46,129 bases of DNA from an uncultured Victivallaceae bacterium. GTDB taxonomy: Bacteria; Verrucomicrobiota; Lentisphaeria; Victivallales; Victivallaceae. The stretch is taken from NCBI GenBank assembly GCA_964599205.1, contig CAZRFG010000001.1, forward strand, positions 1 to 46,129, read 5' to 3'. The notes beneath the pieces are model-generated. The model worked only from the letters and a program-made list of their open reading frames with translations. It was not told the DNA's origin and did no database searches. The translations under genes were made by a program, and so were the position numbers. This document shows, one piece after another, positions 1-43,780 of the stretch (positions are counted from its first letter, which is position 1; every line of letters starts with the position of its first letter).

Positions 1-57
1 GTAAGTATGGACGTCGACGGCAAGCGCATCGACAAGTGGCTGCCGATCGAGGAGTGA
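1..57 (+). CDS. 3' end of an upstream ORF cut by the window edge (..VSMDVDGKRIDKWLPIEE*)
   Basis: Frame is open from base 1 to TGA at 55-57. Too short to assign a family. Confidence 0.3.
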   Translation, partial: VSMDVDGKRIDKWLPIEE

Positions 58-396
58 CGCCCCCCGGAGCCCGCTGCCGCGAAAATCGGTCCGATGGCGT
101 TTGACCCGTTCACGCCAGGCGGACGGTTGCGTCATGCCGTCAAGCCGGCGGGTTTGAGTTGGCCCCCGGCAGCGGCAGCGGCCGGGCCGGGGCAGACGGT
201 CCGGCGGCGGTCAGGATATCCTTCCCCGTCAATCTTCCTTTGCGGCGAATGACCCGGCCGGGCGCGGTTGGGGGTCGCCCGCCCCGTTGCCCTTTTGGCG
301 CATCGGTTTTCCCTTCCTGCATGCTTTCCTTCGCAGATGCGGCACCGCATCGATATTTCATTTCAGCGGAATCAGGACAAACGCCGAAACGGCTTT

Positions 397-436
397 GTCT
401 TTTTTTGTCTTTTTTTGTATCTTTTTGTTCTTTTCG
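397..436. repeat. Four helically phased 10-bp T-tract units just upstream of a promoter
   Basis: GTCTTTTTTT (397-406), GTCTTTTTTT (407-416), GTATCTTTTT (417-426), GTTCTTTTCG (427-436). Each unit starts with GT and carries a T-run at 10-bp periodicity. Confidence 0.8.
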
Positions 437-438
437 CC

Positions 439-467
439 TTGACATCAAAGATTTCTTTTGCTATAAT
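439..467 (+). promoter_or_regulatory. sigma70-type promoter with perfect consensus hexamers
   Basis: TTGACA (439-444), 17-nt spacer, TATAAT (462-467). It lies 42 nt upstream of the ATG at 509. Confidence 0.7.
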
Positions 468-508
468 TAAAAAAAAGAACCAACAAGCGCAAAGAAAAAG
501 GACCGATC

Positions 509-3211
509 ATGGTTTTGAAAGCTGCCCCGCCGCCGAAACGCCAGCGCGTTGCCAACGCGATTACCGAAAGCATCGTCAACGGCCAGCTGCCGCCCGGCGG
601 CAGACTCGCCACGGTGCGGGAGATGTCCACCTATTTTGAGGTCAGTCCTTCCGTAATCCACCGGGCCTTGAAAGATCTGGTCGACGACGGCATGATCGAA
701 TGCCGCGGGGCACAGGGCTTTTATGTTTGCGAAGGCATGAATCCGCCGGCGTCCGCGGCGGAACCGGCGGCCGTCGCGACGGAAGTTCCGACCGACAGCC
801 GGGTGTTCCTTTCGCTCGGCCACCACTCCGACCTGGTCTGGCAGTTGCCCTATGCGGGATACGACGCGATCCGCGAAAAGCAATTCGACACCCTGCTGCG
901 CCACCTCGACCGCCACGAAAATTGTCACATCTACGTCGAACAGGCCGAATTGCTGCGCCGCTACCTCGACGCCCATCCGGAAATCCTGGAAAAATTCCGC
1001 GCCGCCGCCGCGTCCGGCCGCCTGGCGCTGACCGGAGGAGACAGCATTCCGGATCTCAATTTGTGCTGCGGCGAGTCGCTGGTGCGCAACCTGCAAGCCG
1101 GACGCGCCTATTACCGGGACACATTCGGCGTCGAGGTCAGGATCGCATGCGAAAACGACGCGTTCGGGATGTGCGCCCAGCTGCCGCAAATATTGGTCAA
1201 GTCGGGTTACGAATTTCTGCTTCCCGGCCGCCGCCCGGCATTTCCGCGCGAAGTTCCCGGCAACGTGCCGTTCCGCTGGCGGGGCGCCGACGGCAGTGAG
1301 ATCATCGTCACCCCGGCAACCGAATTCGTCAGCCATATCGGTTATTCGATCAACCTGCCGGTTGTCCATTCCGAGCTCGAACAGCTCCGGGAGTCGATCT
1401 TGGAAGTGCGCAACAGCGATTACCCCGGCGATATTTTCGTTCAGTACATGACCGAACTCGAACCGCTGCGCGAAGAGATTTTCGGCATCGTCGACGCCGC
1501 CAACCGGGCCGACGGCGTCAGGATGGTCGAATTCGGCTCCGTATACGATTACTGCGCCCGGATCGACGCCAGGAAAATTCCGGTTGTGCATGGTGAATTC
1601 AATCCCACCTTCACCGGATGCTACACCACCCGCATCGGCGTCAAACAAGCCGTCCGCCGCGTTGAAAATCTGCTCTTCGCCGCCGAAATGCTCGCCGCCG
1701 GCGTTGGGTGCACCGTCGACTGCCGCGAGGCCTGGCATGATTTGAGCCTGGCTTCATTCCATGATGCGGTCTGCGGCTGCCATACCGATGCGGCCAATCT
1801 TGACATCATGGCCAAACTAACTTCGGCGCAGGCATTTGCCGAAGAAACGCTGGCGCGATGCGGCGGGCAAACCGGAAGCGGGTTCCGAGTCATGCAGCCG
1901 GCGGCCGAAGACGGTCCGGCGCTGGTCGAATTTACGTCATCGCAAGATCTGCGGATCGGTGATTTCCCGGTACAGCGCACCGGCGACACCCTCGCGTTTG
2001 TCGCGCCGCTGCCGGGCTGCGGCATCGCGGCGTTTGACGCCGCTCCCGGCGCGATGGAGCCGGAACTGCCGTGCGGAGCTGAATTTGCCACCGACTGGTT
2101 CAAGGTCGACTTTTCCACTCCGCACCCGCTGATCCGGCGATCCGGAATGGACTCCCAGTCCTGCTTGAATCCGGGCTTCGGCGAAATCATTTTCCGGCAC
2201 GAAACCGGGTCGATGTGGAGCGAGGAATTGCAAAGTCCATGGTTCGGCCGGGCCCACACCCGCGAAACCGTGCAATCGATTCAGCGCGGCGCGGTCTTTT
2301 ACCGCGTCGTGACCGAGGGCGAGGCGCTGCCGTTCCCGTCGAAGAACGGCGCGCTGGAACCCTGCTGGGCGGGTTTCGGTTCGCTCAAGTTCCGCAAAGA
2401 ATACCGGTTTTTCCATACGCTCGACTATTTCACGCTGAAGCTTACGCTGGAATGGCGGGGCAGCAACACCAAAATCGCATTGCGCCTGCCGCTGGCGCTC
2501 GATCCGGCCAATACGCAGTTCCTCTGCGACGTGCCGTTCGGGGCGCAGGCCCGGCAGCCCTATTTCGAGGTGCCGCGCCAGTTGGCCGCGCAGCGCCGGG
2601 TATTCACAGCGGAGACCTATCGCCATGCCGCCGGGGACTGGCCGGTGCTGCACTGGGTGGATTGCGCCGACGATGCCGCCGCGCTGGCGGTGGCCAACGA
2701 CGGCGTGCCGGGCTGGCAGTGGAACGCCGGCGCGCTGCTGGCGAGCCTGCTGCGCAGCGGCACCAAAATTGCCGACGGGATGATGCAGCCGCAGCCGGGC
2801 GCGCTGGACAACGGAATCCACGAATACGAATTCGCCTTCAGGCCGCATTCCCCGCTGGAGCCGGAAACCGCCCCGGCGCTCGGCCGCGTCCTCAACCGCA
2901 AACCGGTGGCGTTCCCGGGGCTCGGCAAGGTGGACGGCGAAGCCAGGCGCATGGTGGAGTTCAACCGCGCCAATTTGACTTTGTCGAGTTTACGCCGGGT
3001 CGACGGCGGCTGGGTGGTTCGCGTCTACGAAAATCTGGGCCACCGGACCCAGGCTTGTTTGCGCAGCGATTACGGCGCATTTCAACTTTTCGAATCCGAC
3101 CTGACCGAACGCGAGTGGGTTGTATGCGACAGCCGTAATTTAAGTTTCAAGCCTCTCGAGATCAAAACTTTAAAACTCGTCTTCGACGAAGGAAGGAAAA
3201 TGCTCGAATGA
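509..3211 (+). CDS. GntR-family winged-HTH domain fused in frame to a GH38 alpha-mannosidase-like enzyme (900 aa, cytoplasmic)
   Basis: N-terminal ~75 aa read [61 protein letters not shown] (GntR HTH pattern). An Ala/Pro linker follows, then GH38 hallmarks: [10 protein letters not shown] (metal H-x-D), [11 protein letters not shown] and [15 protein letters not shown] (nucleophile Asp). No stop codon separates the two parts. Confidence 0.8.
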
Positions 3212-3966
3212 AAAAGAGGGCTTTTACTTTGATCGAATTGCTGGTGGTGATCGCGATCATCGCGATTCTCGCCGCCATGCTGCTGCCGGCCCTGAACCAG
3301 GCCCGGGACAGAGCCCGCGGCATCAAATGCGTCAGCAATCTCAAGCAGTTGACCGGAGCGATCCTTTCCTATGCCGGCGACTTCGACGATTATCTGCCGG
3401 GCGCGTGGCAGGCGGGACAGGGCTTTGCGCCGGACAGCTGCGTCGGCTGGTGGTACAGCTGCGTCATTCCGTATATCGGACTGAGCAAGGATAATTCAGC
3501 GACCCGCAAGAACAAGAATACGGTTCTCCAGTGTTCCAGCGACCGGCGCGAAGCCGTCGCCGGGGTCAGCTACGGCATGAACGGATTCATCGCCGCAACC
3601 CTGCCGGCCACCGTCTCCGGCTACTCGCGCCGCAAGCTCGGGATGGCGAAAAAAAGCTCCAGAACGATGATCCTGATCGACACGTACGGCATCAAGAACG
3701 GGAAAAAATACGGGTATGAAGACCCCTACAGCATCAATGCCAGCAGCAATACCACGCTGTTCGCCGCCAATGAAGGCGTCTCGCTCGGCGATTTCCGCCA
3801 CCACGGACAGATCAACGCCGGTTTTCTCGGCGGCAACTCCGAATCGCTGACTTTCCATGCCTTGCGCGATCGCTACGCGGACCGCGACAGCAGCGAAGTG
3901 GGAGAAACCGGCGACACCTCAAGTTTCTGGGGGAAAACCGTCAACGGCAAGAATGCGGGATTCTGA
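3208..3966 (+). CDS. Prepilin-type N-terminal cleavage/methylation domain protein, H-X9-DG-like family
   Basis: N-terminus [30 protein letters not shown]-terminal [18 protein letters not shown] resembles the RH-X9-DG motif, with Asp replaced by Gly. ATGA start/stop overlap with the upstream gene. Confidence 0.8.
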
Positions 3967-4034
3967 ACTGCTTCCGCAACATTCAACCAAATCACCGGCT
4001 TAAAAAAACAATTTACGGCAAAGGAAACCCGATT

Positions 4035-4634
4035 ATGAAAAAAATGACCTGGATTCTCGGTTGCGGCGTACTGCTGAGTTTGAGCGTGCCGGCGGCCGAA
4101 GTGGTGGACGTCAACGGCTCATTTGAAAAGATTCAAGCCATGCCGGATGTCCATGTCAAAGCGCTCAAAGAAAAGGGATTTACCCTCAGCTTCCCCAAAA
4201 ACAAGTGGATTTCCTCGTGGGAAATCAACCCCGCGATGAATCCGGCCACGGTGACTCTGATCAATGAGGACGCCCCGGACGGCAAACGCTTCATCCGCAT
4301 CTGCTCGGTCAAGCCGACCCACTTTGCGCAAGCCAACGGACTGCTCGAAAACCGGGCCTATACGGTCAGCTTCATGGCGCGCGGTGAAGGCGTGACCAGC
4401 GACGACAACCTCTACGATCCGGCCGTCAAACTGATGGCGTACACCTACGTCGCCAAATCGGCTCCGAAAAAGTGGAAGAGCAGCACCGAATTCGAACGCT
4501 TCGACCTCGAGAACAAGTGGCAGGAGTACACCGTCAAGATTCCGGCCAGATTCCCGGATGAAGACATCGCCCTGGTCTTCGAAACCGTCGGCCAGATCGA
4601 TCTTGATCAGGTCAAAGTCACCGTCGCGGAATGA
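4035..4634 (+). CDS. Secreted jelly-roll (CBM4/9- or LamG-like) protein, function unknown
   Basis: Signal peptide MKKMTWILGCGVLLSLSVPAAE. The ~180-aa body ends in IDLDQVKVTV, as many carbohydrate-binding jelly-roll modules do. Confidence 0.55.
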   Translation: MKKMTWILGCGVLLSLSVPAAEVVDVNGSFEKIQAMPDVHVKALKEKGFTLSFPKNKWISSWEINPAMNPATVTLINEDAPDGKRFIRICSVKPTHFAQANGLLENRAYTVSFMARGEGVTSDDNLYDPAVKLMAYTYVAKSAPKKWKSSTEFERFDLENKWQEYTVKIPARFPDEDIALVFETVGQIDLDQVKVTVAE

Positions 4635-7600
4635 ACCGAAGCTTTTTCGAAAACGGAATTTTTTTCATGAAATTTTTGCTGTCGTGGTTTTTCCTGGCCC
4701 TGCTCCTCGCCGGTGCGCCGGCGGTTGACGCCAAAGAATCGGTATTGTTCCTGGCGGCGCGCGAATGGAACACCACCTTCAGCCTCCACACCTACGACGA
4801 GGGGGTGGAGGCGGGGTATGAGGTGAAGGTCGGCACCTATGCCGATATCCGGAGTTTCGCCGACCTCAAAAAATTCAACGTCGTGGTCATCAACAGCATG
4901 CCGCTGATCAACAGCGACGGCAAAGTCCAGCCCGAACAGGCGGTCTTTGAAACCCCCTGCAAGGAATACCTCGAAAAAGGCGGCTCGGTCATCTTCAATT
5001 GCGCCGGCGGCGAGTGGAGCAAGGGCGTCCCCGCGATGAACAGCTTCCTCGCGCCTTATGGCGCCAGAATTCATGAGGAGCAGCTGGTCGACGTCGCCAA
5101 CTTCATCGGCAAAACCGACAAAATCGGCGCGTTCCACTCCACCCGGCAGATCAAGCCGCATGAATTGACCAAAAACATCAAAATGCTCGGCTATCCCGGC
5201 GTCGCCACCCGCGCCGATGCGATGAAAACCGCCAGTCCGCTCACCTTCAGCGATGAGAACGCCTGGACCGTGCTCGCCACCGGCGAAAAGACCGCGATGT
5301 CGGTCAAGGCCGCCGAACCGGGGAACAGCCCGCGGCTGGAGAAAACCGGGGCGACCTATCGCTCGCTTCCGGTCTACCTCGCCGTCCGGAACGTCGGCAA
5401 GGGTATACTGCTCGCCGATGGGGTGAACAGCGCCTTTTCCAGCGCTTCGCCGGAAATCTTCAACCATATGTTGTGGCGCAAAGACGATATGACGACCCCC
5501 GATCTGCCGCAGAACCGCTCGTTCCTTTTGCAGGCGGTCAAAATTCTGGCCGGCCGCAGCGCGGCGCAGGGCTTCGGCGGCTTCGTCGCGGACCCCGGTT
5601 TTGTCCCCGACAGCAAGCATGTGCTGAAAGGCAAATCGACCGACTGGAGCAAAGTGCCGCCGCTTCTCAAAAGCCTGCCCGATTTCGATGCGATGCCGGG
5701 GCTGGTCGGCGCCCAGTCGACGTTCAGCGGCGGCCGGTTCGCGGTCGCCGAAATGGCGCAGGCCGCCCGCAAAAGCGGCCTCAAATTTCTGGTTTTCACC
5801 GAAAAACTGGAAATGATGAACCCGGAAAAGTGGAAGGAGCTCAAAAAAGCGTGCGCCGCCGCTTCGGATGACCATTTCCTTGCGATTCCCGGTTTGCTGA
5901 GCCGCGACCGGATCGGCAACACCTGGTTTGCCTTCGGCGCGGTCGCCAATTTCCCGCAGCCCCCCTCGATCACCCGCGACGGCAAGTGGATGGACAACGT
6001 CTATCAGTTCAACGCCAAGAACTTCGGCTTGCGCATGACCGGCTACGCCTACGCCGGCAAAAATCCGAATCCATGGTCGGAGATGCGCCAGTGCTCCGGC
6101 TTCCCGGTTTTCACCTGGCTCAACGGCAAAGAGGAGGACGACGCCCTCGGCGACTTCTTCAAAAGTTGCTGGAACATGGAGTCGATGATCCCGTTCAGCG
6201 TGACCTTCGTCGACTCTCCCGCGGCAATCGCCGCCACGGCGGCCAATGCCCCGCTCAATATCTTCACCGGCGAATACGCCGAGGAACTGGCCGACTACTC
6301 GATCGGGCAGGGATTCGGCTCCGGCCATACCGAGTCGCCCAAAAAGTGGTATCTCGCGACCCAGGACGGTCCCCGGCTCGGCCAGTTCGGCGCCGTCTCC
6401 GGCGGCTTCGGCGTCAATATCCCCGCGGAAAACCGCAGCGCCCTCGCCTTCCGTCTCGAGAAACTCCGTCCCGGCGATATCGTCAGGCTCCACGACGGCG
6501 AAAAAGTGCTTCGCCAATGGGTGATCGGGTCCGAAACACAACTCAAAACCGAGTTCCGCTGGCCGGTTGAACAGATCCGTATTCCGCTGCTCACCGTGGA
6601 GCGGGAAAAACGCCCGGTGCTGGTGAGTTCCGGTCTTCCGCTGCAGTTCGGTTCCTTTTACAACCAGTGCGGCGACCGGCAGAACACCATTCCCTACGTC
6701 TATTTGCCCGATGCGCACGGCAACGTCAACGTCTCCGGCACCCCGATCGAGATGAAATACCGCGAATGGGCCCCCAACGTGCTGGTTTATGCGCCGGTCA
6801 AAGTCTGGGCCGCGACCGCGATCGGGCTGGAAATCGGGGCGCAGATTTTCTCCAGCTGGTCCGGCGGCGTGCAGATTCCGATCAAGGGCGAATTGCAGGA
6901 GCGGCGGCAGAGTCTTTCGAGCTTTCATTACCCGGTGATGTCTTCGGTGGATATGATGATCGTCGACGACATCGCCGGGCGGATTCACCCGAACGGAAAA
7001 ACCCATCTGGGCGACTGCTATCCGCCGCAGCAGACCGAACCCCTGCGGACATTCAATTACACGGCGCGCAAATACGCGATTTACGGCCGGATCAAAGAGG
7101 GCCAGGTCAATGGCCAGCTGCTCGAAGGCACGATTCGCATCCTGCGCGACATCGAGCTGGAGAATCCCTATATTGAAGTCGCCGTCGCCAACATGGCAAG
7201 CGCGACCCACGGCGAGTACCGCGTCAACGGCAACGTCAAAAACATCACCTTCGGCAATGCCCCCGACCGTAATCTCAACCTCAAACTGGCGGCCGGCGAT
7301 TATTTCGGCGTCTATCCGTTCGGCCTCACCAACGGCGGCGGCGTTTTCGCGGTCAGCGACAATGTGTTCGCTTCGGCGAAAAACGACGCCTCCAGTTTGA
7401 CCTTCAAAATCCGGGTGCCGACCAAACTGGCCAAGGGCGGGGTGATCCGCTATGCGCTGCTCTTTACCAACGGTGGTTCGGTGCCGGTCCGGCTGGAGTC
7501 GGATTATCTGCGCATCCGCAAGCATTTCGGCTTTGACGGTTCATTTCCGGCGCTGGAGTCGGTGGAGGACGCCGAGCTCAACCCCGCCTCGCGGGTGATG

Positions 7601-8023
7601 CCGGAGATCAAGGCCGATCCGGCCAGGGCGCTGACCGTGCGCACCCGGGCGACCCCCGAGGCGCCGACCGGACTGCCGCTGCGCATCACCGGGCTCCATC
7701 CCCGGCGCACGGTCGCCTATCGGCTCAACGACGAGCCGTTCCTGCGCTTTGCGGGCAACGACGGACAAGATTACTATACTCATCTGTATGTCGACCAGAA
7801 GCCCAATCGGCTTGTGCTCGGGCATCCGGTGACCGCCGACGATCCGGAGATCGTCATCACCCTCAACGATTTCAGCGGAAAGTACCAGGACTTTGAAGTC
7901 TACAATCCGACCAATGACGAGCGGAGCGTCACGCTGCGCGCCAACCCCGCGCTGACCGGCAGGGAATGGAGCCGGACGCTGAAGCTGGCCCCGCTCCAGA
8001 AAGAGATCGTATCGGTCAAGTGA
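4631..8023 (+). CDS. Large secreted protein of unknown function (about 1120 aa)
   Basis: The ATG at 4631 overlaps the upstream stop (ATGA). An alternative ATG at 4667 starts directly with the signal peptide MKFLLSWFFLALLLAGAPAVDA. The N-terminal ~130 aa look like a class-I glutamine-amidotransferase/ThuA-like fold (low confidence). The opposite-strand 972-aa ORF is a GC artefact. Confidence 0.75.
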   Translation: MNRSFFENGIFFMKFLLSWFFLALLLAGAPAVDAKESVLFLAAREWNTTFSLHTYDEGVEAGYEVKVGTYADIRSFADLKKFNVVVINSMPLINSDGKVQPEQAVFETPCKEYLEKGGSVIFNCAGGEWSKGVPAMNSFLAPYGARIHEEQLVDVANFIGKTDKIGAFHSTRQIKPHELTKNIKMLGYPGVATRADAMKTASPLTFSDENAWTVLATGEKTAMSVKAAEPGNSPRLEKTGATYRSLPVYLAVRNVGKGILLADGVNSAFSSASPEIFNHMLWRKDDMTTPDLPQNRSFLLQAVKILAGRSAAQGFGGFVADPGFVPDSKHVLKGKSTDWSKVPPLLKSLPDFDAMPGLVGAQSTFSGGRFAVAEMAQAARKSGLKFLVFTEKLEMMNPEKWKELKKACAAASDDHFLAIPGLLSRDRIGNTWFAFGAVANFPQPPSITRDGKWMDNVYQFNAKNFGLRMTGYAYAGKNPNPWSEMRQCSGFPVFTWLNGKEEDDALGDFFKSCWNMESMIPFSVTFVDSPAAIAATAANAPLNIFTGEYAEELADYSIGQGFGSGHTESPKKWYLATQDGPRLGQFGAVSGGFGVNIPAENRSALAFRLEKLRPGDIVRLHDGEKVLRQWVIGSETQLKTEFRWPVEQIRIPLLTVEREKRPVLVSSGLPLQFGSFYNQCGDRQNTIPYVYLPDAHGNVNVSGTPIEMKYREWAPNVLVYAPVKVWAATAIGLEIGAQIFSSWSGGVQIPIKGELQERRQSLSSFHYPVMSSVDMMIVDDIAGRIHPNGKTHLGDCYPPQQTEPLRTFNYTARKYAIYGRIKEGQVNGQLLEGTIRILRDIELENPYIEVAVANMASATHGEYRVNGNVKNITFGNAPDRNLNLKLAAGDYFGVYPFGLTNGGGVFAVSDNVFASAKNDASSLTFKIRVPTKLAKGGVIRYALLFTNGGSVPVRLESDYLRIRKHFGFDGSFPALESVEDAELNPASRVMPEIKADPARALTVRTRATPEAPTGLPLRITGLHPRRTVAYRLNDEPFLRFAGNDGQDYYTHLYVDQKPNRLVLGHPVTADDPEIVITLNDFSGKYQDFEVYNPTNDERSVTLRANPALTGREWSRTLKLAPLQKEIVSVK

Positions 8024-8104
8024 GACGCGCTTGCCCGGCGGCTTGAGCCGACGCCGGGATTGGCGCGCCGCCGGCCGCCCGCAAACACCGCGACAGAAAG
8101 GGAT

Positions 8105-8842
8105 ATGCCGTTGAGCTTGAAAATCGTGTTGATCATGCTCTGCGGTCTCGGCCTCGCCGCCGGGGCCGCGGCCGGACCGCTGCAGCACCGGGCGCCTTTT
8201 GCCGCCGGGACTGCGGCCGAACTCGGGGACGCGACCCATCCCGCCTGGAAAAGCGCGCCCGCGCTGCCGTTTCGCCCGGCCGGACTGGAGGATCCCGCGC
8301 TCGAAGAAGGCGGGCAGGTGCGTTTTCTCTGGAATGAGGATTTTCTCTTCATTTTCGCCGAAATGACCGACTCCGACCTGGTGCAGGAGGCGGAGGCCGA
8401 CGGCGACTTTCTTTTCCGCAGCGGAGATGTGGTGGAAATTTTCATCCGCCCGCCGGGAGGGCGCTGCTACTGGGAACTCCATTTTGCCCCCAATGGCCGC
8501 CGGAGCTCGTACTTTTTTCCGTCGCGGGGGCGCTGGCTGGCGAGCTGTTATGTCGGAACGCCGTTGCCCGGCTTCCGGGTCAAACTTGGACTCGATGGGA
8601 GTTTGAACAACGAAACCGGCCGCGACCGCGGCTGGCGCGGCATCGCCGCCGTCCCGCTGGCGGAGCTCAAACGCAAAACCGGCGACCTGGACTTCAGCCG
8701 CCCCTGGCTGGTGCAAGTCTCGCGCTACAACTACTCCGCCTACCTCGAGCGCATGGAGCTCAGCCAGCTCGGCACTCCGGTCACCCCGAATCCCGACTTC
8801 CATCAGTTCGATTCCTGGCTCCGGCTCGCTCTCGTCCGCTGA
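8105..8842 (+). CDS. Secreted protein, possibly a CBM9-like carbohydrate-binding domain
   Basis: ATG at 8105 preceded by AAAGGGA. Signal peptide MPLSLKIVLIMLCGLGLAAGAAAG. The FLWNEDFLFIFAEMTDSDL..GDVVEIFIRP..YWELHFAPNG pattern recalls CBM9/DOMON-like sugar-binding modules. Confidence 0.55.
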   Translation: MPLSLKIVLIMLCGLGLAAGAAAGPLQHRAPFAAGTAAELGDATHPAWKSAPALPFRPAGLEDPALEEGGQVRFLWNEDFLFIFAEMTDSDLVQEAEADGDFLFRSGDVVEIFIRPPGGRCYWELHFAPNGRRSSYFFPSRGRWLASCYVGTPLPGFRVKLGLDGSLNNETGRDRGWRGIAAVPLAELKRKTGDLDFSRPWLVQVSRYNYSAYLERMELSQLGTPVTPNPDFHQFDSWLRLALVR

Positions 8843-22117: not shown

Positions 22118-22180
22118 GCTCCGGACGCGGACGGCCGTCTAAAGTTGCCGCCCAAAATCGTCCTGTTCGCTTTTTTGATT

Positions 22181-22191
22181 TGTATAATACA
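22181..22191. promoter_or_regulatory. Perfect 11-bp palindrome TGTATAATACA (candidate GntR-type operator)
   Basis: Arms are TGTAT/ATACA around one central base. It abuts the -10 of the minus-strand promoter, sharing 1 nt. An identical copy is at 42639-42649. Confidence 0.5.
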
Positions 22192-22219
22192 TTATATGAT
22201 GATTCCCGGCAAAAGTCAA
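22191..22219 (-). promoter_or_regulatory. sigma70-type promoter of the HpcH-aldolase operon
   Basis: On the minus strand, TTGACT (22219-22214), 17-nt spacer, TATAAT (22196-22191). It lies 74 nt upstream of the ATG at 22117. Confidence 0.6.
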
Positions 22220-22449
22220 TCCGGGAAGTATTTTTTTTGCTCTTTTTTTTGATCTCTCAAGCCGGCTTCGGTTGTTATCCGCAAGGGACATCGCCGGTGA
22301 CGGCCCCGCCGGAAATATTCTGTACTGATTGCGGAGATTGTACAGGGGTGATATTTTTTGTTTTTTTCCGGGCGTCACTTGGCAATCCGCCGAAAAGAGA
22401 GTACTTTAATAGGAAATTGATCAAAAACCATCAAACCTCAGACATATCG

Positions 22450-23520
22450 ATGACTTGTGAAGAAGTAAAAAACAAAATCCTCGACCTGATCGCCGAGCAG
22501 CAATTCGAGCCGGGGTCGAAAATGCCCGCTTTCCGCGCGCTGGCCCGGAAATTTGAAGCCAGCATCCCCACCGTGCAGCGCGCCATCTCGATGCTGGTCA
22601 GCGAAGGCATCCTGATCAGCAAAGTCGGCTCCGGCACCTACGTATCCGAACGCCGGAACAACAAAAGCCGCCTGATCGGCATCCTGCTGCCTTATACCGG
22701 AATGCTGGGCGACAACTTCCTCGCCGTGGCCCAGCACCGGATGCGCGAAGTTTTTCAGCAGAACGGCTACATCCCGGTCATCGTCTATCCCCAGGGCGGC
22801 ACCCGCGGCGAAGAACGCATGCGCGAAGAGCTCTTCCTGATCGAGCAGCTGATGAGCCAGGAGGTGGCCGGGCTGATTGTCGGCTCCGCCTCCGACGTCG
22901 ATTCTCCGTTCTGGCGCAAACTCCGCTTCTTCAACCTTCCCATCGTCTGCTTCAACAACATCGGCCGGGCGGCCGACCAGTTCGACTTCGTCGCCTCCGA
23001 CAACGAACAGGGCGGCGTGCTCGCCGCCGAACGGCTGATCGAAGCCGGTAAAGTCCCGGCAATCATCCTCGCCGACCAGCTCGAAAGCGATGCGGTTTCC
23101 CGGCGCGTCCGGGGCTTCTGCGCCACGTTCGCCGATGCGGGACTTCCCGCGCCGGAGGTGGTCAATCTGGACTCCTGCTTCGGCAGCCCGACCCTGATCG
23201 GCGACCGGCTCCTCGAGAAAATCAAGAAGCACAAGGGCGTCTTTGCGGTCAACGACACCTACGCGGTGAAAACGCTGACCGCGCTCCGCGACGACGGGGT
23301 CAAGGTGCCGGAGGAGATCGCGGTGATCGGCTTCGACGACGGCGACATTTGCGAACATGTCACCCCGCGGCTCGATTCGATCCGCCAGTCCGCCGGCCTG
23401 ATGGGCGAAAAAGCGGCCAGACTGCTGCTTGACCGCATCGCCGCCGGCGACGCGATCCTCGACACCATGCACATCAAGGTCAAAGTGTCGCTGACCAAAC
23501 GCGAATCGGTTGCTCCTTGA
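22450..23520 (+). CDS. Hybrid regulator: GntR-type HTH plus LacI/PBP-type sugar-binding domain (paralog R1)
   Basis: MPAFRALARKFEASIPTVQRAISMLVSEGILISKVGSGTYV, then IGILLP.., VAGLIV, AVNDTYA, and VIGFDD, which are periplasmic-binding-protein-like sensor motifs. Confidence 0.85.
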   Translation: MTCEEVKNKILDLIAEQQFEPGSKMPAFRALARKFEASIPTVQRAISMLVSEGILISKVGSGTYVSERRNNKSRLIGILLPYTGMLGDNFLAVAQHRMREVFQQNGYIPVIVYPQGGTRGEERMREELFLIEQLMSQEVAGLIVGSASDVDSPFWRKLRFFNLPIVCFNNIGRAADQFDFVASDNEQGGVLAAERLIEAGKVPAIILADQLESDAVSRRVRGFCATFADAGLPAPEVVNLDSCFGSPTLIGDRLLEKIKKHKGVFAVNDTYAVKTLTALRDDGVKVPEEIAVIGFDDGDICEHVTPRLDSIRQSAGLMGEKAARLLLDRIAAGDAILDTMHIKVKVSLTKRESVAP

Positions 23521-32305: not shown

Positions 32306-35053
32306 TTAAAAATATAACTTCAAAGTGACGATTTCGCGAGGTCCGGCGCTGACTGTGACCGCGTGATCGCGGACCCTCAACCGCTCCGGCATGGTTTCGT
32401 CGAGCCGGCATTTCTCGACGTATTTGACGGCGACGGCGGGAAAACGCACCGCAACTTGCCGGGGTTCCGCGGCGAGACTGTAGAACCGCAGCACCATCGC
32501 CGGGCCGCGCTCCGCCGCCTTCAGGGCGGTCATCACCATCGCCGGATCGTTGATTTCGCAGAGCGACAGCGAAGGCGGCAGCGCCACGGCGGCATATGGG
32601 TCGGGGCGGAAAAAGATTTCCGAGAGGTCGCTCTCCTGAACGCACGGCCGGCCGCCGCTGAATTTCAAGGGATCGCAACTGTCCGAGCGGCTCAGCGGCG
32701 GATTGAGGAAATCGATTGCCGCGCTCGCTTCGTCGGCGACGGAGTCGGAACCGTCCCCCGGCAGCAGCGCCAGCCGCCCCTCGATGGTGCGCAGACACTG
32801 ATTTTCCGGCGCAATCCAGTCGTCGTCAAGCGGCTTTTCAAAATAACCGGTGATGTAGCGGGTGCCGCGCACCAGGGTGATGCCGAGTTCGCCGGTGCGG
32901 TCGCGGTAATTCTGATACCCGTGCAACCCCTCGACCAGCACCGCCATTCCGCCCTGCTTCGGGTTGCGGATTTTGACGAATTCAAAGGCCGGTTCGTGCT
33001 CGTCGTCCGCCGGTTGCGGCCGGACCGCGTGCTTGTCGCGCTCGACCGCGTCGAACATCGATGACGCCAGCGTGCGGCCGGAGTCGATGCCGGTCCGGAC
33101 CACCGCCCGCAGACAGTGGTCATTGACCCGGTTTTCCAGCTTGAAATCGATTTCGAGATAGGGACAGTCGCGCCGCAGTTTGAACGTGAGTGCGACCGGC
33201 ACCTCGACCAGTTCGGATGAACGGGTGCGGGAAGCCGGATCGGCTTCGCGCGGCAACCGCAGCGTGTAGTCGAGATGCGCCACGCTCTCCACCGCATGGT
33301 CGACGAATTCGACGCGATCCGGCATCAGGCCGCGAGTGGAGAACAAGCCGCCTTCGGGACCGGGGCGGTGGGAATAGCTGTCGCCGAAGTCGGCGGCGTC
33401 TTCCAGCGCAAACACATCCTCGAATCGACGGCCGCGGCGTTTGTCGACGAGGTCGATCCGGCCGTCGCGGCCGATTTCGACTTTGAGGAAGCGGTTTTCA
33501 AAACGGAGCGCCGGCGCTTCCGCCACCTTTTCGGCGCGGCGGACCATGTAGACCCGGTATCCGGTGGCCGGCAGTTCGGCGATGAAACGGATCCGGTGGC
33601 GGTCAACCGGCATCCGGCCGGGAAGATTGATCGGACTGCGCAAGCGGCGCTCGTTTTTTTCGGAGCTGACCATGCGGAAGGGAACCGGCCGGCCGGCGTC
33701 GTCAAAAAGTCCGAATGTTTCAATTTTCTCGTCGCTTTTGAGATCGACGTCGGTTTCGACCAGCGCGGTGCGGCCAAAAGGCAGGGTGTTGACCGCGAGC
33801 ACGTAATAATCGTCCGGCCGGCTGCCGCCGGGATTGAGGTGGGAGCCCAGCAGCCGCATTTTTTCCTCCAGCAGCAGTTCGCCGGCTTCGGCGATCCGGG
33901 CGAAGCGATCCTCCATGTGACGATGGACCGCGTCACGGGAACAGCCGCAGATCGAGTCATGGGGATGGTTGTGGATCAGCGTCTTCCAGAGATAAGCGAG
34001 GACTTCGCGGTCATACGCATCGCGGCCGAAAGGCAGCATCCGGAGCATCGAATTGAGCACCTCCAGCCGCCGGGCAAGGAAATTTTCGGTGCGGATGTTG
34101 GCGATTTTGAGATAAACCCGGCTGGAGAGGGTGCCCTGGAGAATCCAGCGGTCGTTGCCGACGCGCTTCTCGCCGGGCTCGACGGAGGGAGACACGAGTT
34201 CGCGCCGCACCCCCTGGCAGAAGTCGAAAAGGGTGCTCTGGATGATGCGGTCTCTGGCCGGCAGCCGGCGCTGAAGCGCGGGCAAAATTTCGAGCAGATT
34301 CTCCTGCGCTTCGAGGTGGTCGACGCCGTTCATCAGCAGATATTGCGAAGTCGAAGTCACCGGTTCGAGTTTTTTGCGGGCGAGCTCGAAAAAACCGGCC
34401 GCCCGCTCGGGATCGGCGGAGAACCGCTGGGCGTTGTTGTAGAAATTGGCCATCTGGATCGCCAGCAGCCGGGACCCGTCCGGGCCCTGCCAGATGAATT
34501 CGGCTTTGGCCCCGCTCTCCGGGGTGCAGATCCGGCCGCGACCGAATATCACGCTGTCGAGCCCGAAGCCGCGCCCGAGCTGCGGCAGCTGCGAAACCAA
34601 ACCGAAGTGATCGGGGGTGTAGACCACCATCCGGTCGCTCCCGCCGAACTCTTTGACCATTTTGCCCCCGATCAAAAGGTTGCGCACGGTCGCTTCGCCG
34701 CCGGTCAGAAAAAGGTCGTTCTGGACGTACCACGGGCCGATCAGAATATTGCCGCGTTTGATCGCCCGCTTCAACCGGCGGCGGTTTTTCGGCTTGATCT
34801 CGAGATAGTCCTCCAGCACGATGGTCTGGGCGTCGAGATGGAAGACGAATTCCGGCTCCTTCTCCACCAGTTCAAGCAGATGGTCGATCAGCCGCACCAG
34901 CCGGAGGCGGAACTTTTCAAAAGGTTCGTACCACTCGCGGTCCCAGTGGGTGTGACTGATCACGTGATAAGTGTTGCTCATTGTCGCCAATCCTGTTGCC
35001 GAATTTGCTGTTGTATTGCCTGAGATGTCAGGCATGGTGCATATCATTCTCAT
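32306..35053 (-). CDS. GH38 alpha-mannosidase (MngB-like, cytoplasmic)
   Basis: HVISHTHWDREWY, IGPWYVQNDLFL, and YTPDHFGLVSQLPQL. The ATG at 35053 makes an ATGA overlap with the upstream stop. The alternative ATG at 34981 (MSNTYHVISHTHWD) has an AGGA RBS. Confidence 0.85.
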   Translation of the reverse strand: MRMICTMPDISGNTTANSATGLATMSNTYHVISHTHWDREWYEPFEKFRLRLVRLIDHLLELVEKEPEFVFHLDAQTIVLEDYLEIKPKNRRRLKRAIKRGNILIGPWYVQNDLFLTGGEATVRNLLIGGKMVKEFGGSDRMVVYTPDHFGLVSQLPQLGRGFGLDSVIFGRGRICTPESGAKAEFIWQGPDGSRLLAIQMANFYNNAQRFSADPERAAGFFELARKKLEPVTSTSQYLLMNGVDHLEAQENLLEILPALQRRLPARDRIIQSTLFDFCQGVRRELVSPSVEPGEKRVGNDRWILQGTLSSRVYLKIANIRTENFLARRLEVLNSMLRMLPFGRDAYDREVLAYLWKTLIHNHPHDSICGCSRDAVHRHMEDRFARIAEAGELLLEEKMRLLGSHLNPGGSRPDDYYVLAVNTLPFGRTALVETDVDLKSDEKIETFGLFDDAGRPVPFRMVSSEKNERRLRSPINLPGRMPVDRHRIRFIAELPATGYRVYMVRRAEKVAEAPALRFENRFLKVEIGRDGRIDLVDKRRGRRFEDVFALEDAADFGDSYSHRPGPEGGLFSTRGLMPDRVEFVDHAVESVAHLDYTLRLPREADPASRTRSSELVEVPVALTFKLRRDCPYLEIDFKLENRVNDHCLRAVVRTGIDSGRTLASSMFDAVERDKHAVRPQPADDEHEPAFEFVKIRNPKQGGMAVLVEGLHGYQNYRDRTGELGITLVRGTRYITGYFEKPLDDDWIAPENQCLRTIEGRLALLPGDGSDSVADEASAAIDFLNPPLSRSDSCDPLKFSGGRPCVQESDLSEIFFRPDPYAAVALPPSLSLCEINDPAMVMTALKAAERGPAMVLRFYSLAAEPRQVAVRFPAVAVKYVEKCRLDETMPERLRVRDHAVTVSAGPREIVTLKLYF

Positions 35054-41840: not shown

Positions 41841-42608
41841 ATGAGAAAAACGTTTACGCTGATTGAACTCCTCGTCGTGGTGGCGATCATCGCCATTCTC
41901 GCCGCCATGCTGCTGCCGGCGCTGAGCAAGGCCCGGGAGAGAGCCCAGGCCACCAAATGTCTCAGCAATCTCAAACAGTGCGGCACCGGCTGGCTGCTCT
42001 ACGGCAACGACTGGCAGGGCTACATGCCGCTCAATTATCCCGACCAGACTTTTGCCGTCGCCGGCGGCGGCACCATCATCAACGGCTGGGACTCCTTTGT
42101 CGGCCCGTGGCGCAACTCCGGCAAGACCATTCCGTCCGGCGGGTACGTCAAAAACACCGCATGTTTGCGCTGTCCGGGCATTACCAAGGTCAACACCTAC
42201 AGCCTGGGCCGTGTTTACGGCGCGATGCATATAAATACCTCGCCGCAGCGCCGCCCCGAAGACTGGTGGCGCTACCGGATGGTCGCCGGCGTCGTCCAGT
42301 ACTGGCCGAAAAGTCCGAGCAAAAACTATGCCCTGACCGACTCGATCGTGCTCCAGGGCGGCGCCAAGGGCGACCAGTTTGCCGGTGTCGACCTTGCTCA
42401 GCCCCCGGCTTCACTGACCCGCACCATCCACATGCGCCATCCCGGTAAAACCGCCAACGCCTGGATGCTCGACGGCTCCGCCAAGGCGATGTCGCGCGAG
42501 GAACTGATCAAATGGCCGAGCGGCAGCATCGGCGTCGGCCAGGCGCTCTACGGCGGCAGCCGCGCTCCCGAGATGCCGGACAACCTGGAGTTCGGCGAAG
42601 TCAAGTGA
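41841..42608 (+). CDS. Prepilin-type N-terminal cleavage/methylation domain protein, H-X9-DG-like family
   Basis: N-terminus [29 protein letters not shown]-terminal [16 protein letters not shown] is H-X10-DG, one residue longer than the canonical spacing. Confidence 0.8.
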
Positions 42609-42638: not shown

Positions 42639-42649
42639 TGTATAATACA
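42639..42649. promoter_or_regulatory. Perfect 11-bp palindrome TGTATAATACA (candidate GntR-type operator, contains TATAAT)
   Basis: Identical to 22181-22191. It lies 43 nt upstream of the ATG of regulator paralog R2. Confidence 0.5.
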
Positions 42650-42691: not shown

Positions 42692-43780
42692 ATGAATAAA
42701 AAAATCGTCACCTGCGACGAAGTCAAACCGAAGATTCTCGACAACATCCGCCGGAACCGGATCCGGGCCGGCCAGCGGCTGCCGTCGTTCCGGGCGCTGG
42801 CCCGGGAGTTCGGCTCGAGCATCCCGACCGTCCAGCGGGCGGTGTCGATGCTGGTGAGCGAAGGACTGCTCACCAGCAGAGTCGGCTCCGGCACGTATGT
42901 CTCCAAGTCGTCGCCGCCGTCCAGCAAATTCGTCGGAGTGCTGATGCCCCACATTCCGCCGAATGCGGGAAATTTCATGACCGACGCCTTTGTCAGCATG
43001 CGCAAAATCCTGCTTGACCACGGCTATTTTCCGGTCAGCGTCGAGCCGACCCCGAACACCTCGGGGCAGGTCCGGGACCGCGAGGAGCTCGAATTGATCC
43101 GGAAACTGGTCAGTCAGGGCATGGCCGGCATCATCGTCGACTCCTGCGCCGATGAGGCCTCGCCGATCTGGCGGGAACTCCAGTTGCTCAATATCCCGGT
43201 GCTTTGCTTCAACAACAGCGGCAGGGGTGCGGGCAACCTCGACTGCGTCAGCGCCAACAACTATCAGGGCGGGGTGCTGGCGGCGGAGCGGCTGCTCGCT
43301 ACCGGACGCCGCGCACCGGTGATCGTATCCGACCCCTTTGACGGCAGCAGTTCGGTCCGGGACCGGATCCGCGGCTTCATTGAAACCATGCGCGAGGCGG
43401 GCGTCGCAGTAGCCCCCGATGCGATCATCCCCTGTGCCGAACTGCTCGACGGCAAAGGAACGGACGATGCGGCCGCAGTTCGGTTTCGCGCCGCCGACGC
43501 GGTTTTCGGCATCAATGACGGGATGGCGATCATCGCGATGAAGTTTTTGCAGCGGACCGGGAGACGGATTCCGGCCGATGTCGCGGTGATCGGCTTTGAC
43601 GACAGTGAGCTCTGCGAACACGTGACGCCGCGACTCGACAGCGTCCGCCAGGCCAGCGCCCACATGGGCCGGCGCGCCGCCGAATTGCTGCTGGAGAGAA
43701 TCGAAAACCCCGCCAACCGGGCCGACACCATTCAACTGAAAACCATGGTTTCGCTGGTTATCCGCGACTCGGTCAAATAA
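42692..43780 (+). CDS. Hybrid regulator: GntR-type HTH plus LacI/PBP-type sugar-binding domain (paralog R2)
   Basis: LPSFRALAREFGSSIPTVQRAVSMLVSEGLLTSRVGSGTYV. The sensor-domain motifs VGVLMP, MAGIIV, GINDGMA and VIGFDD are colinear with R1. Confidence 0.85.
   Translation: MNKKIVTCDEVKPKILDNIRRNRIRAGQRLPSFRALAREFGSSIPTVQRAVSMLVSEGLLTSRVGSGTYVSKSSPPSSKFVGVLMPHIPPNAGNFMTDAFVSMRKILLDHGYFPVSVEPTPNTSGQVRDREELELIRKLVSQGMAGIIVDSCADEASPIWRELQLLNIPVLCFNNSGRGAGNLDCVSANNYQGGVLAAERLLATGRRAPVIVSDPFDGSSSVRDRIRGFIETMREAGVAVAPDAIIPCAELLDGKGTDDAAAVRFRAADAVFGINDGMAIIAMKFLQRTGRRIPADVAVIGFDDSELCEHVTPRLDSVRQASAHMGRRAAELLLERIENPANRADTIQLKTMVSLVIRDSVK

Follow-up and report, generated by a model that had tools for sequence, protein, structure and literature searches.

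A GntR winged helix fused to a complete GH38 glycosidase in Lentisphaerota: a putative one-component regulator with a candidate operator at its own promoter

The GntR-GH38 fusion gene and its family

The window analysed here is a stretch of 46,129 nucleotides (nt) from an uncultured Victivallaceae bacterium (assembly GCA_964599205.1, contig CAZRFG010000001.1, positions 1 to 46,129 of the forward strand), near the start of which (509..3211, plus strand) a single open reading frame of 900 codons joins a GntR-type winged helix-turn-helix (HTH) to a complete glycoside hydrolase of family 38 (GH38). The frame opens with ATG, a Shine-Dalgarno-like AAGGA lies 7 nt 5' of it (497-501), and the N-terminus of the 900-aa (amino acid) product has no hydrophobic stretch and no signal peptide. 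Much of this had been claimed in an earlier reading of the letters alone (hereafter the original prediction), i.e., one uninterrupted frame, an N-terminal GntR winged HTH, an Ala/Pro-rich linker, a GH38 body and no signal peptide, and each element was recovered here, both halves by Pfam searches. The winged HTH occupies residues 11-73 (539..727, plus strand) and matches PF00392 over positions 2-64 of 64 with 45.9 bits (cut-off 27), or 50.7 bits when the N-terminal 100 aa are searched in isolation. It is followed by the Ala/Pro-rich segment of residues ~77-97 (737..799, plus strand), of which about 15-20 aa are predicted to be flexible or disordered. The remainder (800..3208, plus strand) comprises, according to Pfam and Foldseek, the N-terminal catalytic alpha/beta, the helical middle and the C-terminal beta domains of GH38. 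All four Pfam modules score above their gathering cut-offs: Glyco_hydro_38N (residues 106-357, 99.4 bits), Alpha-mann_mid (367-447, 44.3 bits), Glyco_hydro_38C (586-752, 26.9 bits, cut-off 25) and the C-terminal beta-sandwich Glyco_hydro38C2 (824-888, 25.9 bits, cut-off 22).

An AlphaFold2 (AF2) model built from 53 family members reached a predicted local distance difference test score (pLDDT) of 91.9 and a predicted template-modelling score of 0.87, residues 77-90 alone being disordered (pLDDT < 50). Its HTH consists of three helices (10-23, 36-43 and 47-59) and a two-strand wing (63-65 and 71-73). The top 40 Foldseek matches of the model in the PDB are all GH38 enzymes, led by Streptococcus pyogenes SpGH38 (2WYI, E 9e-44, TM 0.73) and including Enterococcus faecalis 5KBP, fungal Ams1 and Bifidobacterium Bl_Man38, and hhalign against canonical GH38s gave a probability of 100%. 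NCBIfam reports HTH-level similarity to GntR, MocR, HutC and FadR equivalogs and a partial similarity to mannosylglycerate hydrolase, none of them near its cut-off. FCD, UTRA, aminotransferase and periplasmic-binding-protein (PBP) domains were not found in the fusion protein by Pfam or NCBIfam, and the MocR-type NCBIfam models, which reach the HTH only (residues 7-134 at most, far below cut-offs), gave no sign of an aminotransferase domain. The fusion thus falls outside the recognised GntR subfamilies and, classified by effector domain, its C-terminal 800 aa of GH38 would constitute a new one.

The fusion is real and conserved, not an assembly artefact. Logan contigs from four sequencing runs, each of a different study (sludge, freshwater sediment, a bioreactor and another sludge), span nucleotides 300-1500 without insertion, deletion or joint, and without a frameshift or stop between the HTH and GH38 parts; in a divergent strain (run X9), 10 of 651 nt are substituted and the frame is intact. 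A protein search recovered ~55 clusters (870-937 aa, 35-52% identity) that have this GntR and GH38 Pfam architecture, and among contigs from one genome per species we found ~45 genomic loci with a continuous tblastn match from query residue ~1-10 to ~890. The alternative, that two adjacent genes were joined through a sequencing error during assembly or annotation, has a practically negligible probability in the face of four independent assemblies that lack any indel over the junction, more than 50 homologous full-length fusions and 45 loci matched continuously from residue ~5 to ~890. Database members of the family carry automatic names, either "GntR family transcriptional regulator" or "alpha-mannosidase". 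The original prediction named no characterised GH38-HTH regulator, and our literature search likewise found no published description of a GntR-GH38 protein or of any HTH-glycoside-hydrolase regulator; with more than 50 auto-annotated members in the databases, however, the architecture is uncharacterised rather than unseen. At one locus (L045, 4292-6924) tblastn matches the fused gene as two segments (query residues 8-286 and 307-891) ~50 nt apart; a frameshift, insertion or misassembly in this metagenome-assembled genome (MAG) may be the cause.

All ~45 fused loci, like the more than 50 protein clusters, belong to Lentisphaerota (Victivallales, Victivallaceae, Victivallis vadensis MAGs, Lentisphaeria and Oligosphaeraceae), and several MAGs harbor 2-3 fusion paralogues per genome. 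Close relatives without the HTH, which match from residue ~95-105 onwards, are present in Lentisphaeria and also in Clostridiales (Murimonas intestini), Ratteibacteria, Armatimonadota, Omnitrophota and Planctomycetota, with more distant ones in Dehalococcoidia. A neighbour-joining tree of the GH38 portion, which has no support values and is indicative only, gathers the fused proteins in one clade with one unfused group as its sister and two unfused groups nested inside, suggesting that the HTH was gained once and lost about twice. Within the family alignment, HTH residues R32, S46, L57, E64, G67 and G70 are invariant, which argues that the HTH is under selection.

Outside the family, the closest relatives of the HTH are proteins of 350-385 aa (39-47% identity), and five of the seven that were checked combine GntR with Peripla_BP_3, i.e., the AraR-type architecture, which suggests that the fusion arose by a domain swap. 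These were identified by exhaustive HMMER searches with the HTH alone, used in place of a word-indexed homology search that had returned one 104-aa fragment only. A recent duplication of the HTH from the two GntR-PBP regulators of the window itself was rejected, as identity to them is only 23-31%. Also among the best HTH matches are proteins with four or five tandem GntR winged-HTH domains (P0084, P0088 and P0131), for example one of 393 aa with five PF00392 matches (229 bits); such a multi-HTH architecture is unusual.

Promoter and phased repeats

The fused gene of the window is preceded by a sigma-70 promoter (439..467, plus strand) that matches the consensus at 12 of 12 positions (TTGACA-17 nt-TATAAT) and carries an extended -10 TG (459-460), much as the original prediction had stated; it is the sole 12/12 site within the first 12 kb of the window. 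Directly upstream lies a candidate operator of four direct repeats phased at 10 bp (394..433, plus strand; TTGTCTTTTT / TTGTCTTTTT / TTGTATCTTT / TTGTTCTTTT), the units of which start at -44, -34, -24 and -14 relative to the -35 hexamer. The array is unique in the window (three repeat matches at spacings of 10 and 10, against 0.05 expected). Downstream of the -10 box, the A-rich leader (469..504, plus strand) holds two degenerate inverted units, AAAAAAAAGAACC and AAGAAAAAGGACC, possibly a second, inverted operator array that is weak in the window; the arms 400-429 and 469-498 are 70% complementary. Further upstream, a terminator-like hairpin (336..351, plus strand; GATGCGGCACCGCATC followed by a T-rich tail), recognised by consensus match only, would close the preceding transcription unit. 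The leader is only ~41 nt long, and an Rfam search of positions 1-4700 (E <= 0.1) gave no match to a riboswitch or leader RNA. A candidate internal promoter at 668-696 (9/12), from which Met77 could have started an HTH-less GH38, was rejected, since four such sites were found where 2.5 are expected and Met77 is not conserved. The X9 strain has three substitutions inside or beside the repeat array (393, 399 and 435), one of which, C399A, gives the first unit, otherwise TTGTCT, the TTGTAT of the family consensus.

The sequences upstream of 43 fused genes were compared with 3478 AT-matched background windows, with 1.2 Mb of Lentisphaerota loci and with 20 unfused genes of the same GH38 clade. Sigma-70-type promoters lie ~25-70 nt 5' of the ATG of fused genes; 11 fused loci, the window included, have a 12/12 promoter, and most have a near-consensus one at the matching position. 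These promoters are flanked by TTGTAT(T/C)TTTT repeats phased at 10 bp, with forward copies 5' of the -35 box and inverted copies (AAAAGATACAA) often between the -10 box and the ATG, the inverted GATACA units at this leader position being clearer in other fused loci than in the window. The register is fixed across fused loci: relative to the -35 hexamer, forward units begin at -35, -25 and -15, and relative to the -10 hexamer, inverted units begin at +15/+16 and +25/+26; in several loci the array reaches into the -35 box itself (GTATTGAC). TTGTATT occurs in 25 of the 43 fused upstream regions and in 154 of the 3478 background windows (Fisher P 2e-22). In the 1.2 Mb of Lentisphaerota sequence, 19 of 31 phased clusters fall within 220 nt upstream of a fused gene; the upstream regions of the 20 unfused clade genes contain no such cluster and only rarely a single core motif.

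The repeats also co-vary with the protein. The recognition helix of the HTH is formed by residues 47-59, and the specificity candidate within it is position 51, a histidine in the window protein. Proteins with Gln51 (SV(I/V)Q) have TTGTAT upstream in 28 of 34 cases, as opposed to one of nine among the others (P 1.6e-4), while those with Tyr or His at this position (SV(A/V)YR or SV(I/V)H, the latter being the type of the window protein) have TTGTTY or TTGTCT in seven of nine cases, against six of 34 (P 1.4e-3). This co-variation with the recognition helix, the motif enrichment and the fixed register are what would be expected if the HTH and the repeats were a cognate pair, and they support the view of the HTH as functional in DNA binding, with a candidate operator at its own promoter.

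The half-site TGTAT is, however, shared with other regulators of the window. The 11-nt near-palindrome TGTATAATACA has exactly two copies in the window (22181-22191 and 42639-42649, 0.03 expected), each overlapping a -10-like TATAAT just 5' of a GntR+PBP (AraR-like) regulator, and is probably an autoregulatory operator common to both; at these PBP-type regulators the half-site is inverted, at the GH38-type it is repeated directly and in phase. This sharing lends some plausibility to a reading in which the repeats are not the operator of the fusion at all and are instead a lineage-specific UP element or bent DNA, or the site of another GntR regulator, in which case the fused HTH would bind elsewhere or provide ligand-independent feedback only. 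The units are indeed T-rich and phased like A/T tracts, and their 18-nt core (TGTATTTTTTTGTATTTT) is common by chance in AT-rich DNA. Inverted copies 3' of the -10 box cannot be UP elements, though, and a generic UP element is hard to reconcile with their presence; in the 1.2 Mb of Lentisphaerota loci the arrays hardly occur outside the promoters of fused genes, being absent from unfused GH38 genes and from other promoters, and their core follows residue 51 of the fused HTH. We regard such a non-operator role as very unlikely.

The first of the two GntR-PBP genes (22180-23520, plus strand) is listed with a TTG start that puts its GntR HTH no earlier than residue 94, and the promoter and palindrome lie at 22181; the TTG start at 22180 is probably wrong and the real one is likely to be found ~270 nt downstream. 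A comparable arrangement was seen in a V. vadensis MAG (L083, ~1040-1100), where a GntR-family gene of 360 aa (Pfam: GntR only) heads a neighbouring heparinase II/III cassette and has four CTGGTA repeats, phased at ~10 bp, between a consensus -10 box and its ATG. The geometry mirrors that of the GntR-GH38 promoters with a different motif, and suggests a lineage-wide cassette design in which an autoregulated regulator is the first gene and has its own phased repeat.

As to the direction of control, promoters of full or nearly full consensus (12/12 in 11 loci) and the inverted leader units lead us to favor repression. An activator, in which upstream phased repeats (~-80 to -40 from the transcription start) act as class-I-type sites from where the ligand-bound protein stimulates the operon, would agree with the upstream units being the only clear ones in the window and in L005, L006, L011, L028 and L045, and with their placement on one helical face beside the -35 box. 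Yet promoters with 11-12 of 12 sigma-70 consensus positions, 17-nt spacers and an extended -10 should not need activation, many loci have inverted units at ~+3 to +30, which are typical repressor positions, and the intrusion of the array into the -35 box in several loci also speaks for repression; activation thus appears quite unlikely.

Active site and proposed mechanism

In SpGH38 the zinc ligands are H13, D15, D125 and H351, D125 is the nucleophile and D232 the acid/base, with roles also assigned to W18, F127 and R149 (PMC2815779). H106, D108, D217 and H418 of the fusion align to these zinc ligands and the nucleophile and are invariant in alignments of 71 and of 53 sequences, H106 and D108 lying in the motif GHHSD and D217 in NDAFG; W111, F219 and R241, which match W18, F127 and R149, are conserved too. 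Together with D419 and E316, the four metal-site residues are invariant in 53 of 53 family sequences, which argues for an active site under selection. The acid/base loop is different. Canonical GH38s read G-(Y/I)-G-D-(G/H)-G-G-G-P here, and in dGMII the acid/base D341 sits in such a G-D-G-G-G-G-type loop. Throughout the clade of the fusion, in fused and unfused members alike, the loop is replaced by Y-x-T-E-E with a three-residue deletion, the window protein reading Y313-M-T-E316-L317. Both MAFFT and hhalign align the canonical aspartate to position 317, which is Leu in the window protein and Glu in 39 of 53 sequences, so that the window protein lacks the canonical general acid/base. The two motifs that the original prediction called apparently intact, GHHSD and NDAFG, are thus present, their metal and nucleophile residues being invariant in the family. 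The canonical acid/base motif is not intact and reads Y-M-T-E-L instead of G-D-G-G-G-G. Since unfused members share the altered motif, it is a property of a divergent GH38 clade and not a sign of decay after the fusion. The adjacent, invariant E316 is a candidate for, and likely to be, the acid/base residue, and the GH38 half is likely to be catalytically active.

It could nevertheless be argued that the GH38 half binds a mannoside-type ligand without hydrolyzing it, as the aminotransferase fold does in MocR and the kinase fold in ROK repressors, and that the protein is purely a regulator, mannoside hydrolysis being left to stand-alone GH38s such as the one encoded at 32306-35053. The loss of the GDGGGG motif, the variety of residues at the aligned position (Leu here, E/L/T/V in the family) and the recognizable aspartate which that separate GH38 has at this position (in NGVDH, not GDGGGG) are all in line with a pseudo-enzyme. 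We still consider it unlikely, given that Y-x-T-E-E is common to unfused, HTH-less clade members of other phyla, presumably enzymes, that E316, invariant in 53 of 53, adjoins the aligned acid/base position, and that the nucleophile and the four zinc ligands are invariant over 35-50% divergence, beyond what ligand binding would usually demand.

Taken as a whole, we infer an autoregulatory one-component regulator in which GH38 acts as the sensor of a sugar and the operon is held off until the ligand is present, a reading towards which we lean, albeit with modest confidence. In this protein a cytoplasmic GntR winged HTH would be tethered by a flexible linker of ~20 aa to a full GH38, sitting where AraR-like GntR regulators have their sugar-binding PBP effector domain. 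Oligomerisation would probably be supplied by the GH38 body as well, since bacterial GH38s are dimers or tetramers: SpGH38 is a dimer (PMC2815779) and the Bl_Man38 PDB entries were deposited with four chains each; fungal Ams1 is a tetramer (PMC7609781). Several HTHs of such a dimer or tetramer could engage, as in MocR-type proteins, the phased head-to-tail TTGT(A/C/T)T repeats abutting the -35 box (394-433) and, in many relatives, the inverted leader repeats, and the bound regulator would restrain a promoter that is near consensus and strong in itself. An imported oligosaccharide of alpha-mannoside type, on entering the zinc active site, would relieve DNA binding and switch on the operon, which encodes, besides the regulator-enzyme, a pseudopilin-like DUF1559 protein and three presumably secreted proteins. 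As the sensor probably also hydrolyzes its own ligand, induction would be self-limiting, in the manner of a trigger enzyme. The original prediction of a trigger enzyme or one-component glycan sensor has thereby gained an HTH with a candidate operator, backed by enrichment, register and co-variation, while the gating of DNA binding by substrate or product is still conjecture.

Several points weigh against this reading. The motif and co-variation statistics treat related loci as independent, ~12 of the 43 fused loci have no clear motif, and two (L001 and L003) have no promoter directly upstream. The clear repeats of the window are all located 5' of the -35 box, where activators typically bind, and the inverted units downstream are degenerate; with the canonical acid/base aspartate absent and L317 in its stead, hydrolysis could be impaired. 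It is possible that another GntR protein cross-recognizes the repeats via the shared TGTAT half-site. A scan of metagenome contigs for the 18-nt core yielded at least 120 loci, and none of the 120 among the matches listed had a GntR-GH38 gene; most of these are chance matches in AT-rich DNA (GC 0.2-0.45), the few GC-rich ones lack a Lentisphaerota-type promoter or gene, and outside the lineage the core has no diagnostic value by itself. Lastly, the support comes entirely from sequence and predicted structure.

A bolder extension, which we put forward tentatively and hold to be possible but short of probable, is that the family represents a new GntR subfamily, the first with an active glycoside hydrolase as its one-component effector, and operates as a self-resetting switch that consumes its inducer. 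The GH38 oligomer would then present its flexibly tethered winged HTHs to phased repeats on either side of the promoter, wrapping or looping it shut until release by an oligosaccharide that GH38 goes on to hydrolyze, and the family would have diversified into 2-3 specificity classes and paralogues per Lentisphaerota genome.

Known systems, implications and neighbouring genes

One-component or trigger-enzyme-type fusions are known as a kind; the GH38 effector domain is new and the operator geometry is unusual for GntR. The MocR/GabR regulators come close in having an N-terminal GntR winged HTH, a long flexible linker and a large, dimerising, ligand-sensing domain of enzyme fold, and their operators include direct rather than inverted repeats. 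Their effector is a pyridoxal-phosphate aminotransferase fold that is largely non-catalytic, whereas the fusion has a zinc-dependent GH38 glycosidase of ~800 aa with conserved catalytic residues, and its repeats form 10-bp-phased arrays beside the -35 box. AraR-type regulators (a winged HTH with a LacI-like PBP fold), which share their architecture with the closest outside relatives of the HTH (39-47% identity), are local, sugar-responsive regulators of glycan-utilization operons, the very role proposed for the fusion, and the Bacillus subtilis AraR box has a TGTA-type half-site resembling the window palindrome TGTATAATACA; they differ in their PBP sugar-binding domain and palindromic operator, where the fusion has GH38 and phased direct repeats. 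PutA, BirA and NadR are trigger enzymes with a built-in DNA-binding domain. BzdR and RbkR also unite an enzyme and a DNA-binding domain in one polypeptide (PMC3602430, PMC5397151). Such proteins control genes of their own pathway by substrate availability, a coupling that for the fusion is conjectural; none of these five is a glycoside hydrolase and none has a GntR winged HTH. The bacterial cytosolic GH38s (SpGH38 2WYH/2WYI, E. faecalis 5KBP, Escherichia coli MngB and Bl_Man38) share the five-domain fold, the zinc ligands, the nucleophile and the lack of a signal peptide with the fusion, which is only 14-17% identical to them, has YxTEE for GDGGGG and adds the N-terminal HTH. Finally, the RsgI proteins of Clostridium thermocellum, membrane anti-sigma factors with carbohydrate-binding or glycoside hydrolase sensor modules, sense extracellular polysaccharide. 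They resemble the proposed regulator in that a carbohydrate-active module senses for the transcriptional control of glycan-degrading genes, but they are membrane proteins without a DNA-binding domain, and the fusion is soluble, cytoplasmic and predicted to bind DNA.

Glycan-utilization loci are usually under the control of sensors dedicated to binding sugars, among them LacI, AraR, hybrid two-component systems, SusR and anti-sigma factors. A complete glycoside hydrolase as sensor would, if true, be a new logic in which the inducer is consumed by its own receptor, would give the well-studied GntR family a new class of effector domain, and could yield a mannoside-responsive biosensor part. The Lentisphaerota/Victivallales are a gut- and sludge-dwelling lineage of the Planctomycetes-Verrucomicrobia-Chlamydiae group with huge repertoires of carbohydrate-active enzymes and almost no experimental genetics, and the fusion offers an entry point into their gene regulation; with an operator and a specificity residue (position 51) predicted and a sigma-70 promoter that matches the consensus, the hypothesis lends itself to direct tests in E. 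coli. The YxTEE GH38 clade and its recurrent secreted partner of 900-1500 aa may mark an undescribed glycan-degradation pathway.

Across loci the fused gene is consistently the first of its operon, usually followed by an N-methylation/DUF1559 gene, often by a gene of ~200 aa and then by one for a protein of 900-1500 aa without known domains. In the window, the start of the next gene (3208..3966, plus strand) overlaps the GH38 stop codon (ATGA), and its product combines a prepilin-type N-methylation motif with DUF1559 (SBP_bac_10), as do those found 3' of the fusion in L011, L013, L028, L084 and L085. It is followed by a protein of 199 aa without family assignment (4035..4634, plus strand), with a homologue in L011 and a ~197-aa gene at the same position in L085, by one of 1130 aa (4631..8023, plus strand) and by one of 260 aa (8060..8842, plus strand) with a weak CBM9-like match (CBM9_1, E 6e-4, below cut-off), probably the last gene of the operon. 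The original prediction of an operon of secreted unknown proteins holds for these three, which have signal-peptide-like N-termini as judged by eye, but not for the first downstream gene, which is of the prepilin-type DUF1559 kind. L085 has exactly the gene order of the window, and variants include DUF4838 in L083 and proteins with GDSL-lipase domains in L086.

The 1130-aa protein gave no Pfam, NCBIfam or PDB match above cut-off, a word search found three homologues, and an AF2 model from four sequences was unusable (pLDDT 35.8). Its most conserved stretch (residues ~350-466) has a faint PolX/PHP-like NCBIfam match (E 0.063). Relatives adjoin members of the GH38 clade, fused or not (L013 11884-15141 and L057 2508-5483; also in Armatimonadota), and because they also neighbor unfused members we associate this protein with the GH38 clade and not with the HTH.

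Two genes 3' of a fused GntR-GH38, a short fragment of GH130 (beta-mannoside phosphorylase/mannosidase) is encoded in L081 (16682-17101) and L082 (8315-8695), which fits a mannoside context; genes for a phage-type integrase, a D5-like primase and methyltransferases lie close by at this locus. Elsewhere in the window, a second prepilin-like (N_methyl) gene (41841-42608, plus strand) sits directly 5' of the GntR-PBP regulator at 42692, so that a pseudopilin and a regulator are paired here too. The stand-alone GH38 mentioned above (32306-35053, minus strand, 915 aa) is of the HTHWD/PDHFG type, is ~20% identical to the fused GH38 and belongs to a minus-strand cluster with an MR_MLE enolase-superfamily enzyme, a 2-hydroxyacid dehydrogenase, a HEAT-repeat protein, a beta-helix protein and a major facilitator superfamily transporter.

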